Assembly (NCBI GenBank): GCA_022566895.1 | Contig: JADFIA010000001.1 | Span: 631 to 64,630 of the forward strand | Direction of reading: 5' to 3' | DNA: 64,000 nt | Origin: Pseudomonadota bacterium | Lineage (GTDB): Bacteria; Pseudomonadota; Alphaproteobacteria; Sphingomonadales; SMXR01 | Shown: positions 15,504 through 21,352 of the stretch, in pieces | Layout of the letters: each line of letters starts with the position of its first letter | Position numbering within the stretch: the stretch's first letter is position 1 | The notes under the pieces: model-generated | The model's input: the letters and a program-made list of their open reading frames with translations, nothing else | The model's database searches: none | Told to the model about the DNA's origin: nothing | Program-made: the position numbers and the translations under genes

Positions 15504-15977
15504 ATGCACCTCTCACCGCATTTCACACTTTCCGAAATGACCAAATCGCAAATCGCCCTACGTCGCGGCATCGGCAATTCACTCGACCCAGGAAATCCAG
15601 ACGATGCGGAAGTGATCAACAATCTGAGGCTCCTGTGCCTTGAGGTTCTGGAGCCGGTGCGTGAGGCTTTCGGTATTCCCTTTGCGCCATCGTCCGGTTA
15701 CCGCTCGCCGGCCCTTAATACGGCGTTGGGCTCCAAGCCCACCTCGCAGCATGTCCTGGGGCAGGCGGTGGACTTCGAGCTACCGGGAATCCCGAACTTG
15801 AAATTGGCACAGTGGGTCCGAGACCATCTTAAATACGACCAGCTCATTCTGGAGTTTCATGAGCCCGGCGAGCCCGCCAGCGGTTGGGTGCACGTTTCCC
15901 TTAAGGAGACGGGCAACCGTCGGCGCGAGCTGACCATCAACCGCAAAGGTGTTTTCCCGGGACTTGGCAAGGCCTGA
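15504..15977 (+). CDS. Peptidase M15 (D-Ala-D-Ala carboxypeptidase-like Zn peptidase), phage endolysin type
   Basis: LSPHFTLSE, VLEPVRE, SSGYRS..LN, SQHVLGQAVD (SxHxxGxAxD), DQLILE, WVHVS. No signal peptide; RBS GGGGAG. Confidence 0.88.
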   Translation: MHLSPHFTLSEMTKSQIALRRGIGNSLDPGNPDDAEVINNLRLLCLEVLEPVREAFGIPFAPSSGYRSPALNTALGSKPTSQHVLGQAVDFELPGIPNLKLAQWVRDHLKYDQLILEFHEPGEPASGWVHVSLKETGNRRRELTINRKGVFPGLGKA

Positions 15978-16015: not shown

Positions 16016-16041
16016 AGCCCGGAGTAGTCCGGGCTTTTTTT
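16016..16041 (+). terminator. Intrinsic terminator 1 between endolysin and holin
   Basis: AGCCCGGA-GTAG-TCCGGGCT followed by a T run (7 T from 16035). Confidence 0.8.
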
Positions 16042-16051
16042 ATGAACCAAC

Positions 16052-16078
16052 GGCCCGGGATTTCCCGGGCCTTTTTTT
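16052..16078 (+). terminator. Intrinsic terminator 2 between endolysin and holin
   Basis: GGCCCGGG-ATTT-CCCGGGCC followed by TTTTTTT. Confidence 0.8.
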
Positions 16079-16095
16079 GTGGAAAGGAAGAAGAA

Positions 16096-16296
16096 ATGTT
16101 ATCCAAACTTTTGGAAGGCGGTCTGTTAAGTGGCCGCAAAACCTACCTGGCGGCGGCTGGCGTCGCAATCTCGGCGGTGATCGCCTACCTGGTCGGCGAC
16201 GCCGGCCTGATGGACACCCTGACGACCGTTGGCGAGGCTCTCGGGATCGGGTTCCTGCGGGCCGGGGTGGCCAAATCCGCAACCCCTCAAACCTGA
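16096..16296 (+). CDS. Small membrane protein, holin-like (66 aa)
   Basis: MLSKLLEGGLLSGRKTYLAAAGVAISAVIAYLVG...ALGIGFLRAGVAK; G[RK]KTY start and two hydrophobic segments. Strong RBS GGAAAGGAAG; lies between endolysin and spanin. Confidence 0.65.
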   Translation: MLSKLLEGGLLSGRKTYLAAAGVAISAVIAYLVGDAGLMDTLTTVGEALGIGFLRAGVAKSATPQT

Positions 16297-16964
16297 TGGG
16301 GTTTTTAAAACTCGGTGGCCTCTTGGCCGCCCTGATGCTGATGGCGGCGGTTGGTTTTTTGTGGAAAGCCAACGAGCGAAAGGCGGCCGAACTTGGCACC
16401 CTGCGAGCCAGCCTGGCCGGTGCCGAGGCCACGATTGCCTTTAACGACCGCCTGGCCATTTACAGCCAGAGGCAAGCGGATGCGCTGGCCGCCCGGGATG
16501 CCGCCAACCAGAGAGCCATGGAGGCCCTTACCAATGAACGCAACAGATTGCGGGTCACCGTCGAAAGACGGGCCCTTGAAGATCCTTATGATTTTGGCGA
16601 TAGTTTTGAGTTTGAGCTTGCCCGGCTGTTCTGTCTTTTCGAAGCCGGAAGTGATCGCGGTGCCCGCAAAGCCTGTAATCTTCATTCCCGCGAAGCCTAC
16701 AAGCCCGAAATCGCCCTTACCCTTACCGTCACGCCCCAACTGGCCGAGCGGTGGGCCGAAGCCTGCGCCGCCGGAGAAGAACGATCAGAGGACTTCTGCC
16801 GTTGGTCGATAACCGGCTTTACAGCGCAAGGCGGGATCACGATCCTCAATCATCTGGAGCGGCTGGCAGCCTTTGCGCTGGCGCTTGAGGATCGGGCCGG
16901 TGTCCTGGAAGCCATGCTTCGCGAGCTGGCGGATCGGCCGCAGGCGGACCAAAAATCCCCTTAA
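16296..16964 (+). CDS. i-spanin (Rz-like) protein; as sequenced it runs on into an o-spanin-like C-terminal domain
   Basis: TGATG coupling to the holin; N-terminal TM ([18 protein letters not shown]), Ala-rich coiled coil and 4 Cys in the distal half. Confidence 0.65.
16576..16812 (+). CDS. o-spanin (Rz1-like) outer-membrane lipoprotein in the +1 frame of the i-spanin
   Basis: (M)[32 protein letters not shown]; lipobox Cys at 16627, Ser at +2, 15 Pro in 61 mature residues. TTG 16576 or ATG 16588 start. Confidence 0.65.
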   Translation: MKILMILAIVLSLSLPGCSVFSKPEVIAVPAKPVIFIPAKPTSPKSPLPLPSRPNWPSGGPKPAPPEKNDQRTSAVGR

Positions 16965-17884
16965 GCCTCGGTCGGCAAGAAGCCTTCGATCGACAGGTAG
17001 CGCTCGCCGGAATCATAATTGAAGCCGAGGATGCGCGATCCCTCTGGAAGCTCGGGAATCTTTTTGGCGATCGCGGCCAGACAGGCGCCCGAGGAAATTC
17101 CGATCAGACAGCCCTCCTCGCGAGCCGCGCGGCGGGCGTACTCCATGGCGTCCTGCTGGTGCACCAGGATAACCCCGTCCAAGAGGTCCATAAAAAGGTT
17201 GTCCGGAATAAATCCGGCGCCGATCCCCTGGATCATATGCGGGCCGGGCTTGCCGCCGCTGATCACCGGGGAATGCTCCGGCTCGACCGCAAAAACTTTC
17301 AGATCCGGCCATTCTTTTTTCAAAAGCTGGGCGCAGCCGGTGATATGGCCGCCGGTGCCGACGCCGGTGATGATACAATCGAGACCCTCGGGAAAATCGG
17401 CCAGGATCTCCTGGGCCGTAAAATTCCTGTGCACATCCAGATTGGCCGGATTGTCGAACTGGGAGGGCATCCAGGCATTGTCCATGGTTTCAAGGATCTC
17501 CTCGGCCTTGGCCACGGCGCCGGGCATGCCCTTTTCCTTGGGGGTGAGGACAAATTCGGCACCATAAGCCAGCATCAGCCGCCGGCGCTCGATCGACATC
17601 GATTCAGGCATGACCAGCAGCAGCCGATACCCTTTCACTGCCGCCACCATGGCCAGGGCAACCCCGGTGTTGCCGGAAGTGGGCTCGACAATCACGGTGT
17701 CTTTGTTAAGGGATCCGTCCGCTTCCGCCGCTTCGATCATCGACAGCCCAATACGGTCCTTGATGCTGCTGGCGGGATTGACCCGCTCCTGCTTGATCCA
17801 GACCTCGTGGGTTGAGGGGAACAGTTTATTCACCCGGATGTGCGGCGTATTGCCGATTGTTTCAAGAATATTGTCGGCCCTCAT
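16961..17884 (-). CDS. cysK: Cysteine synthase A
   Basis: [52 protein letters not shown]. Confidence 0.95.
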
Positions 17885-17919
17885 AAGCTTTCTCCAATGA
17901 TCGTTCGTCCAGTTTCGAG

Positions 17920-18762
17920 CTAGATGTTCCAGTTCAGCCCGCTTTCGGATTTGTCCGACGATTTGTACATGACCCGTGAGTAGGGCAGGATCGAGTGGGT
18001 CAGAAATACATTCCCTCCGATGACCGAATCATGCCCGACCACCGTCGCACCGCCGAGGATGGTTGCATTTGCATAAATGACAACGCCGTCTTCGATCGTC
18101 GGATGCCGTTTGCTGTTCTTGTCCTCGCGGTCAACTTTGAGCGCACCGAGTGTGACGCCCTGATAAAGTTTGACGTGATCACCGATGATCGCGGTCTCGC
18201 CGACCACAACGCCGGTGCCGTGATCGACAAAGAACGACGCACCGATTTCGGCGCCCGGATTGATGTCGATGCCGGTTTCCATATGAGCGTATTCCCCGAT
18301 CAGACGTGGCAAGAGCGGAATGTCCCGGACATAAAAGCGATGTGCAATCCGATAGGCGGCGACTGCAAAAGTCCCGGGATAAGTAACGATAATCTCGCTT
18401 AATGAGTTGGCGGCCGGGTCGCCGGCCATTGCCGCTTCGGCGTCCAGACGGATGGCCTCGGCGATTTCCGGCAATTCCTGCATAAACGAATCCCCAACCC
18501 GCCGGCGCTCATCTTCGTCCCGATCCCAGAGGCGAGCCAGTAGGTCGAGCAGCTTGGCGCGCACCTCGCCCAACTTGCTCTCGATCCCCTTGGCGTCGCG
18601 CTCATCCTCGCCGGCAAACTGCGGCAGAAGCACGGCCAGCACGTTACGCAAAAACCGGCCGGCTTCCGACATCGTAACGCTCGGCGGGTCATCATAGGCG
18701 GCGTGCCGCGCCAAAAGCACGGCAGCGATTTTCTGAAGACTGGTCTTGTTCTTAGAGGTCAT
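17920..18762 (-). CDS. cysE: Serine O-acetyltransferase (EpsC-type)
   Basis: [41 protein letters not shown]; ends in Ile (LNWNI), as expected for CysK binding. Confidence 0.9.
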
Positions 18763-18920
18763 CGCTTGTTGCCCCGATCCTCGCAGTCCTGGGACCGCCT
18801 GCCCACCGGGCTCTATCTTTTGACAAAGCCATCAAAGGCGCAACCCATTTTCGGTCCGGCCAGCATTTACCAGTCCACAGATATCACGCATTGGCCCCGG
18901 TTGCAGCTTAACACCCCTTA

Positions 18921-19697
18921 TCAAGACCCGGAAATCGGCCCATCGTCAGTTGACGTGGCAGGCTTTTCCCTAAGTTCCTCGCCAGCGGCGGCCATCGCCT
19001 CTTTGGTCAACTCGAAGCTGCGGCCAACGACTCGGCGCCCCAACTCGGCCTGGAACGCGTCTTTGTCGAGCCCCTGGGGCATCGGCGGGTGGTATTCGAG
19101 AATGATCTTGCCTGGCCGCATCCAAAACTCACGAGCCGACCAGAAATAGCCGGCATTGGTAGCCGAAGTGATGACCCTAAAGTCGGTTCCGTCCTGAATA
19201 TGGAAAGCGCCGCTTCTGAGCTTGATCTGCTGCAGTGACTTCACCCGTGTGCCTTCCGGGTAGACCAGAAGTGGACGCTTGGACTGCCTCAGGAGTTCTC
19301 CTATATCCGGCAGATTCTCATGTGCAGTACCCTTGCCACGGTCAATTTTCAGGATCTCCATTTTGCGGAGCAGCGTCCCGAAAGCCGGAATATAGAACAG
19401 CTCGCGCTTACCAAGCCCAGTCGGATAGGGAATAATGCTGGCCGCAAGAAAAGCATCGATCGTACTTTCGTGCCGTGGGCAAACAATATAGGGACCCTCA
19501 GCCGGCAGGTTTTCGAGACCGCGGACTTCGATATCTATCCGCACGATTTTCTTTAGCAGCCAGCGAACAAAATCGGTCCAATGGCGTATGCCGTGATAGA
19601 TAGGGCGGTACGTCTTCGCCGGAACCGCCGCTAGCATGCTGATCACCCAAAGCGGTAGGAGCGTGTAGAAGGTCAATTTGAAGATAATCGTCCGCAT
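18921..19697 (-). CDS. 1-acyl-sn-glycerol-3-phosphate acyltransferase (PlsC family)
   Basis: HESTID (HxxxxD), K.EL..IP.FG, YPEGTR. Confidence 0.85.
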   Translation of the reverse strand: MRTIIFKLTFYTLLPLWVISMLAAVPAKTYRPIYHGIRHWTDFVRWLLKKIVRIDIEVRGLENLPAEGPYIVCPRHESTIDAFLAASIIPYPTGLGKRELFYIPAFGTLLRKMEILKIDRGKGTAHENLPDIGELLRQSKRPLLVYPEGTRVKSLQQIKLRSGAFHIQDGTDFRVITSATNAGYFWSAREFWMRPGKIILEYHPPMPQGLDKDAFQAELGRRVVGRSFELTKEAMAAAGEELREKPATSTDDGPISGS

Positions 19698-21275: not shown

Positions 21276-21352
21276 TGGTGCACCCGGCGAGATTCGAACT
21301 CACGACCTCTGCCTTCGGAGGGCAGCGCTCTATCCAACTGAGCTACGGGTGC
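21276..21352 (-). tRNA. tRNA-Arg (anticodon CCG)
   Basis: GCACCCGTAGCTCAGTTGGATAGAGCG-CTGCC-CTCCGAA-GGCAG-AGGTCGTGAGTTCGAATCTCGC-CGGGTGC-ACCA; 77 nt with encoded CCA. Confidence 0.97.

Follow-up and report, generated by a model that had tools for sequence, protein, structure and literature searches.

On the forward strand of the window, by which we mean the whole 64,000-nucleotide stretch of DNA that was analysed, four intact ORFs form a putative lysis cassette. The cassette is located between an AI-2E transporter gene and cysK. It begins with an M15-family peptidase of the endolysin type (positions 15504 to 15977, 157 aa) that matches phrog_894 (E 2.4e-38) and PF08291 (E 3.4e-16) and displays no visible signal or transmembrane domain (TMD). 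Two tandem hairpins resembling intrinsic terminators (16016 to 16081) separate this gene from the next one; they occupy 16016-16035 and 16052-16071, and each consists of eight pairs followed by a T run. A small, holin-like membrane protein of 66 aa is encoded at 16096 to 16296, and its TGA overlaps the ATG of an i-spanin-like gene (TGATG) that runs from 16296 to 16964 and encodes 222 aa. Wholly inside the latter, out of frame at an offset of +1, lies the putative embedded o-spanin gene (16534 to 16812) that is the main subject of this report.

The holin-like ORF is read as such from its position and hydrophobicity only, since it had no Pfam or PHROG match. An earlier note on this DNA, made from the sequence, held the hidden ORF to be the strongest evidence for a lysis locus; we would instead give that place to the endolysin match, which is the strongest single sign. 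In every locus with a readable holin-like ORF, the spanin gene comes directly after the holin. The endolysin gene paired with this spanin family is of the M15 type in the window and in loci L004 (2673-3116, scanned), L006 and L012 (the last two by eye), and T4-lysozyme-like in L003 (4223-4690, scanned) and L005 (2413-2829, by eye). The lysis cassettes of this spanin family are mosaic.

The i-spanin gene and its relatives

The earlier note took the host ORF for an i-spanin, and our results bear this out in three respects: the protein has an N-terminal TMD, a long helix is modelled at residues 3-95, and members of its family match PHROGs annotated as Rz-like spanins. The hydrophobic stretch falls within residues 5-22. 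In the AF2 model (mean pLDDT 90.9, pTM 0.71), the helix at 3-95 has pLDDT above 90 and is followed by helices at 97-117, 121-127, 147-159, 164-168 and 177-212. Beyond a first Cys pair (C113/C127) is a C-terminal domain of residues 140-222 (16713 to 16961; TVTP..AERW), which holds a second Cys pair (C157/C168) and the terminal helix (177-212). A Foldseek search of the model against the PDB returned nothing usable (best E 1.1).

Eleven relatives of the i-spanin, at 91-37% identity and conserved over the full length, were found in a large protein database, and a profile search of 1.84 billion representatives gathered 83 family members at E<=1e-3. Among 48 sequences, C157 and C168 never vary, and C113 and C127 are conserved in at least 90%. 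Since each protein of the split form described below has one Cys pair, the predicted pairs are C113-C127 and C157-C168, and these probably form within one chain or between like chains. The window protein itself matches the Rz-like spanin families phrog_2466 and phrog_89 weakly (E 0.025 and 0.036). Of the 48 family members, eight match phrog_739 and five match phrog_214 (best E 2.8e-8), both of which are Rz-like spanin families, and other Rz-like PHROGs are matched by fewer. Neither window product matches any Pfam family at E<=1, lambda Rz (PF03245) and Rz1 (PF06085) included.

None of the 60 genomes searched within the organism's family and order carries the i-spanin gene; two scans of species-representative genomes, tblastn against GenBank phages and two of five viral-contig scans also gave no match. 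A class-wide search of 400 genomes produced three matches. Two of these (L010 and L011) were rejected as spurious, since they match an acidic-repeat protein, and the third (L009) is a true distant spanin pair.

Anatomy of the putative embedded gene

The +1-frame ORF is present as the earlier note described it: a TTG at 16576, an ATG at 16588, the same signal peptide, a lipobox Cys codon at 16627, Ser at +2, 15 Pro among 61 mature residues and an end at 16812. The start that the note gave (16576 or 16588) fares less well. The +1 frame is open further upstream, where an ATG at 16534 lies 9 nt downstream of a GGAGG Shine-Dalgarno (SD)-like motif (16520 to 16524), and no SD-like 4-mer occurs within 20 nt upstream of either TTG 16576 or ATG 16588. 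The window, L003, L004, L005, L012 and L013 (6/6) all have an ATG that is preceded at -9 to -15 by an SD-like motif and that puts the Cys at residue 24-37. Because GGAGG precedes ATG 16534 and because the same arrangement recurs in five other embedded loci, we set the gene start at 16534, which is the likely start on these sequence features. The ORF is then 92 codons long, with its TAA stop at 16810-16812, as compared to 78 codons from TTG 16576 and 74 from ATG 16588.

The precursor predicted from ATG 16534 has a 31-residue signal peptide (16534 to 16626), consisting of an n-region with K11 and K16, a 13-residue h-region, and the lipobox residues L-P-G (16618-16626). The lipobox Cys is residue 32 (TGT, 16627-16629) and opens a Pro-rich core that makes up the first 27 residues of the mature lipoprotein (16627 to 16707). 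The remainder is a Pro/Lys-rich tail that is poorly constrained (16708 to 16809). No Cys able to serve as a periplasmic Cys is present in the mature protein. The uncharged h-region and the Cys are kept in all six embedded loci. At L004 (3705-3788), the mature o-spanin would be only 27 residues long, in that the tail is absent and the protein ends where the host-frame domain begins.

Conservation and selection in two frames

Embedded loci for which DNA was available are L002, L003, L004, L005, L012 and L013; of the loci considered in this report, L005, L006 and L007 are viral contigs. L002 is not independent, as its DNA is 99.5% identical to window positions 16474-19394. The i-spanins of L003 and L004 are 63% and 29% identical to that of the window, and both genes come directly after tail-fibre or tail genes, with a RecT-like gene also present in L003; these neighbors therefore indicate phage contexts. 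The earlier note had made its reading depend upon a +1-frame lipobox being conserved in homologues, and one was found in all six of these embedded loci. A +1-frame signal peptide and lipobox Cys occur in 5/5 independent embedded loci, even where host-frame identity is as low as 29%. Measured along the i-spanin gene, the Cys codon is found at 0.46-0.52 of the length, beside a conserved Cys of the host frame. The lipoboxes of L003, L004, L005, L012 and L013 are LPGC, LAGC, AASC, LTAC and LTAC, respectively. In L004, the signal peptide is quite unlike that of the window, and it is followed by the canonical LAGC.

Could such an ORF be a mere by-product, itself non-coding, of the conserved and G+C-rich host gene? 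Its length is unremarkable: permutation of synonymous codons gave P=0.014 for the window, 0.09 for L003 and 0.72 for L004, which we do not regard as significant. Moreover, the +1 Cys codon arises in part from conserved host residues (Leu-Phe beside C113), and 65 of 3000 permutations of the window gene, given the host protein, still yield a +1 ORF with signal and lipobox. The corresponding yields are 1/3000 for L003, 3/3000 for L004 and 28/3000 for L005, and all four loci possess the ORF despite these rare yields. Under a loose rule of our own, 5 of 1548 long proxy genes of the genome contain an embedded, same-strand signal-plus-lipobox ORF, the candidate included. The other four passing ORFs (genome G000, contigs C14, C33, C55 and C59) look poor, like chance matches.

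Codon usage in the host gene speaks to the same question. We aligned the host genes of the window and L003, a single sequence pair, by codon and counted, among identical residues, those with differing codons. Differences amounted to 23 of 41 before the overlap, 16 of 66 in the whole overlap and 18 of 27 after it (Fisher p=2.7e-5 for the overlap against the flanks, which together have 41/68). Broken down by region, the counts are 3/24 over the signal peptide (p=4.5e-5), 4/18 over the Pro-rich core (p=0.007) and 9/25 over the tail (p=0.059). A low rate of synonymous change in the host frame is the expected mark of a second coding frame, because each third position of a host codon serves as a second position in the +1 frame. 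The suppression is strongest where a lipoprotein should be constrained, and both frames are under selection.

The peptide also has relatives outside of embedded genes. Its Pro-rich core aligns with those of the non-embedded lipoproteins of L006 (LAGC), L007 (LTSC) and L009 (IGSC) and with the collected protein P0085 (VASC), and residues C1, P21, P24 and P27 of the core are invariant in eight aligned o-spanins, non-embedded ones included. By BLASTP, the window o-spanin matches P0085 at E 8e-4. Synonymous suppression that is found only over the overlap, a lipobox ORF that persists at 29% host-frame identity with a different signal peptide, an SD-like motif before the start in 6/6 loci and homology to non-embedded lipoproteins are all difficult to reconcile with a by-product, which is accordingly disfavoured and, in our estimation, very improbable.

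The earlier note also expected that standard gene callers would miss the gene. Such is the case: a search of 5.8 billion protein clusters, in which 11 relatives of the host protein are present, gave nothing at E<=0.1 for the 92-aa product, and automatic annotation overlooked the embedded o-spanin in every relative. The note's reading of the ORF as an Rz1-like embedded lipoprotein gains support from the +1 lipobox kept in homologues, the synonymous suppression and the lysis-gene context. Judged from these sequence comparisons, positions 16534-16812 very probably constitute a genuine embedded o-spanin gene, read in the +1 frame of the i-spanin gene and specifying a Pro-rich, Rz1-like lipoprotein of the outer membrane.

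Lipobox, and proposed export and function

The window lipobox, LPGC, has an atypical Pro at -2. This position falls outside of the consensus [LVI][ASTVI][GAS]C as given in PMC6139136, which also reports functional deviant lipoboxes, such as AWAC. Of nine distinct loci with DNA, the window among them, five satisfy the consensus (L004, L006, L007, L012 and L013). A literature search for LPGC as a lipobox found no paper. Pro at -2 occurs in one of 38 candidate lipoproteins of the host organism, a 332-aa protein with LPAC (contig C33 of G000). The organism is diderm, as judged by LolA (E 8.8e-24) and Omp85 (E 1.7e-66), and a search of the 86%-complete assembly for signal peptidase II (PF01252) gave no match. 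Across the six embedded loci, the residue at +2 is S, S, G, A, G and G, with no Asp. The sorting rule for this position (Asp at +2) is established for E. coli. The window o-spanin had no Pfam match (E<=1) and no PHROG match. An ESM Atlas feature search brought up one cluster of Rz1 (PF06085) and one of RzoQ, at 0.89 and 0.87, respectively; recognition was below threshold, and we treat this as a weak lead.

The mechanism that we propose draws upon established spanin biology and the anatomy described here. The precursor would be exported by Sec, lipidated at Cys32 (codon 16627) and cleaved by signal peptidase II, and the lipoprotein would be sorted to the outer membrane because its +2 residue is Ser and not Asp. 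There, its 27-residue Pro-rich core may bind the periplasmic, C-terminal part of the inner-membrane i-spanin to give a complex that spans the periplasm. Once the holin and endolysin have acted, this complex would disrupt the outer membrane. A complex prediction with i-spanin residues 88-222 and the mature o-spanin scored 0.00, which is no answer and counts neither way.

Chromosomal site

The flanking genes are housekeeping genes (named by eye: the AI-2E transporter gene, cysK, cysE, plsC-like, korAB-like, pyrD-like and polA). A prophage was rejected as the setting in view of these flanks, the lack of flanking att-like repeats and the distance to the nearest tRNA, at 21276. A gene transfer agent (GTA) locus was likewise rejected, as no structural genes were found: HK97 capsid, portal and GTA_TIM were not found in the 86%-complete assembly, in which PF11351, PF13547, PF05065 and PF04860 had no match (the control of the PF11351 scan matched in no genome), and GTA_TIM was also not found in five relatives.

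The same site holds lysis genes in sister genera. In genome G003 there is an M15 peptidase (55% identity) together with a GTA-type holin (PF11351), in G005 an M15 peptidase alone, 64% identical to the window endolysin, and in G002 and G004 a PF11351 holin alone. The PF11351 matches in these genera have E values of 1.4e-16, 2.8e-13 and 5.1e-16, and the lysis genes are situated at L014 605-1476, L015 1043-1498, L016 2459-2917 and L017 2421-2828. In the window's lineage, the site is occupied by an unrelated small holin and the spanin pair. The lysis locus between the AI-2E transporter gene and cysK seems to have been kept vertically on the chromosome while its content was exchanged.

In a sister strain (L002), unrelated DNA bearing the N-terminus of an integrase (L002 1-304) replaces everything to the left of 16474, including the endolysin, the holin and codons 1-59 of the i-spanin. 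Its o-spanin ORF is intact, with one Leu-to-Ser change in the h-region. As the i-spanin gene is interrupted at 16474 in this strain, the module may be silent or dispensable.

This raises the prospect that the holin-spanin unit is a silent or decaying relic here that makes no functional o-spanin, even though the gene family is real. Consistent with a relic are the housekeeping flanks with neither prophage genes nor the capsid, portal and GTA_TIM genes mentioned above, the replacement in a sister strain that is otherwise 99.5% identical, and the sister genera that keep only parts of the lysis set at the site. In addition, two terminator-like hairpins precede the holin, and a consensus scan for sigma-70-type sites found no promoter-like site upstream of it. 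That scan was limited to sites of this one type, however, and decay sits poorly with four window ORFs that are all intact and with intact relatives of 222-227 aa at 91%, 80% and 67% identity, one of them on a 963-kb contig. We therefore consider a relic possible but rather unlikely, and proceed with the reading of 16534-16812 as a genuine o-spanin gene.

A domain found on either spanin subunit

Some relatives of the pair are organized differently. At L006, the i-spanin is only 136 aa and ends soon after the first Cys pair, and it is overlapped in the +1 frame by a lipoprotein gene (LAGC) whose Pro-rich core runs straight into a domain equivalent to the C-terminus of the window i-spanin. Residues 140-218 of the window i-spanin match residues 65-156 of the L006 o-spanin (BLASTP, 41% identity, E 3e-21), and residues 80-131 match the L006 i-spanin (E 9e-6). 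The 222-aa window protein thus corresponds to an L006-type i-spanin joined to the C-terminal domain of an L006-type o-spanin, and the hidden gene corresponds to the N-terminal half of such an o-spanin. The genes of L007 abut, and here too the two-Cys helical domain is on the lipoprotein (LTSC). P0085, a lipoprotein of 171 aa (VASC), likewise combines a Pro-rich core with the domain, and the C-terminal domain of the window i-spanin matches it at E 4e-11. At L009, the pair is overlapped, and the o-spanin matches phrog_812 (Rz-like spanin, E 3.1e-10).

The family profile was split into two halves, and 91 collected proteins were classified with it. Both halves were found in 65 of the 91, and by eye in P0077 and P0090 as well; eight were i-spanin-only (127-152 aa). 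Thirteen were called domain-only, seven of which begin in a Pro-rich or lipobox segment (P0067, P0068, P0069, P0075, P0078, P0085 and P0086), with one truncated fused form and five ambiguous proteins making up the rest. The remaining three were two short fragments and one unrelated protein of 1640 aa.

The covalent union of core and domain bears on what the lipoprotein does. Its mature form has no periplasmic Cys, which would suit a real lipoprotein with some role other than that of a spanin subunit, such as superinfection exclusion. Nevertheless, in L006, L007 and P0085 a single polypeptide contains both this Pro-rich core and the domain carried by the window i-spanin, which ties the two products into one machine, and the gene directly follows the holin wherever a holin-like ORF is readable. 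We regard such a separate role as improbable and retain that of an o-spanin.

Coordinate arithmetic places the o-spanin frame at +1 relative to the N-terminal part of the i-spanin in both the fused and the split forms. What separates the two forms is thus a net change of frame somewhere between the Pro-rich core and the domain, presumably caused by a single indel. A programmed -1 frameshift from the +1 frame back to the host frame could re-attach the C-terminal domain to the o-spanin, in keeping with the fusion of domain and lipoprotein in relatives and with a junction just after the Pro-rich core. A heptamer of the form X_XXY_YYZ, however, occurs in the o-spanin frame in just one of six embedded loci, near the end of L005, and none of the six has a homopolymer of six or more. 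With no conserved slippery site, programmed frameshifting was rejected and is hardly credible here.

On a weakly resolved tree of the domain (80 rows, 89 columns), the lipoprotein-borne state needs four changes, and well-supported branches force at least two of them. One forced change is that of P0068, which is nested with P0045 and P0033. P0045 and P0068 have a near-identical domain and different upstream frames: P0045 continues the i-spanin, and P0068 begins with a TLSGC lipobox. This difference, known from the proteins alone, would represent a frame switch of very recent date or else an indel introduced by sequencing.

As the domain is on the lipoprotein in L006, L007 and P0085, one family spans embedded, overlapped and separated layouts. 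PMC6139136, a 2018 survey of 528 systems, states that none of its spanin families mixed embedded with overlapped or separated members, and a literature search for later work on spanin families mixing layouts found none. By a modest margin we favor the view that this family occurs in all three layouts because a frame change at the joint of core and domain moves the two-Cys domain between subunits, and that in the window's lineage the pair was installed at a vertically kept chromosomal lysis locus. If this view is correct, an embedded Rz1-like gene can arise from an overlapped pair through a single indel and not only by de novo overprinting, the frame switch has occurred more than once, and the junction domain works from either membrane anchor. 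The frame swap implies that the junction has three parts (i-spanin segment, domain and Pro-rich core) and that either of the links between them can be covalent.

Comparison with known systems

The hidden gene adds another embedded o-spanin to those known, and its family is not named in any profile library. The interest of this family lies in its linking of layouts, in the concrete route that it offers by which a domain passes between overlapping genes via a frame change, and in the natural experiment that it provides on how spanin subunits join, with the same domain tethered to either membrane; it may also serve as a worked example of the origin of a nested gene.

The pair resembles lambda Rz/Rz1 in that the o-spanin gene lies wholly inside of the i-spanin gene in the +1 frame, in that its i-spanin combines an N-terminal TMD with a long helix, and in that the genes follow a holin and an endolysin. 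The o-spanin is, like Rz1, a Pro-rich predicted outer-membrane lipoprotein, with 15 Pro in 61 mature residues as compared to the 10 in 40 given for lambda Rz1 in PMC6139136. It differs from Rz/Rz1 in lacking membership of the sequence family (no Pfam match at E<=1 for either product), in the extra two-Cys helical domain of its 222-aa i-spanin, and in the distribution of periplasmic Cys, of which the i-spanin has four and the mature o-spanin none. Four Cys in the i-spanin were recorded for 4 of 526 systems (PMC6139136, Table 8). Unlike Rz1, the window o-spanin has the lipobox LPGC and ends at 0.77 L; approximately 70% of embedded spanins end at 0.9-1 L according to PMC6139136.

Compared by description, the overlapped relatives L006 and L009 and the abutting (separated) relative L007 are arranged like P2 LysB/LysC and T4 PseT.3/PseT.2, from which the window pair differs in being embedded. 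The o-spanins of these relatives have two Cys 11 apart and a C-terminal helix, and are in this description like T4 PseT.2, for which PMC6139136 gives Cys 87 and 98 and a C-terminal helix.

A stand-alone chromosomal lysis locus with differing lysis genes in sister genera raises the question of a function for the host. Gene transfer agents, such as RcGTA, have stand-alone endolysin-holin lysis loci. The window cassette is like these in that its lysis genes are chromosomal and lie apart from any cluster of virion genes, and holins of the PF11351 (GTA_holin_3TM) family are found at the same site in sister genera. It departs from the GTA loci in having no PF11351 match of its own (in a scan whose control matched nowhere) and in carrying a spanin pair.
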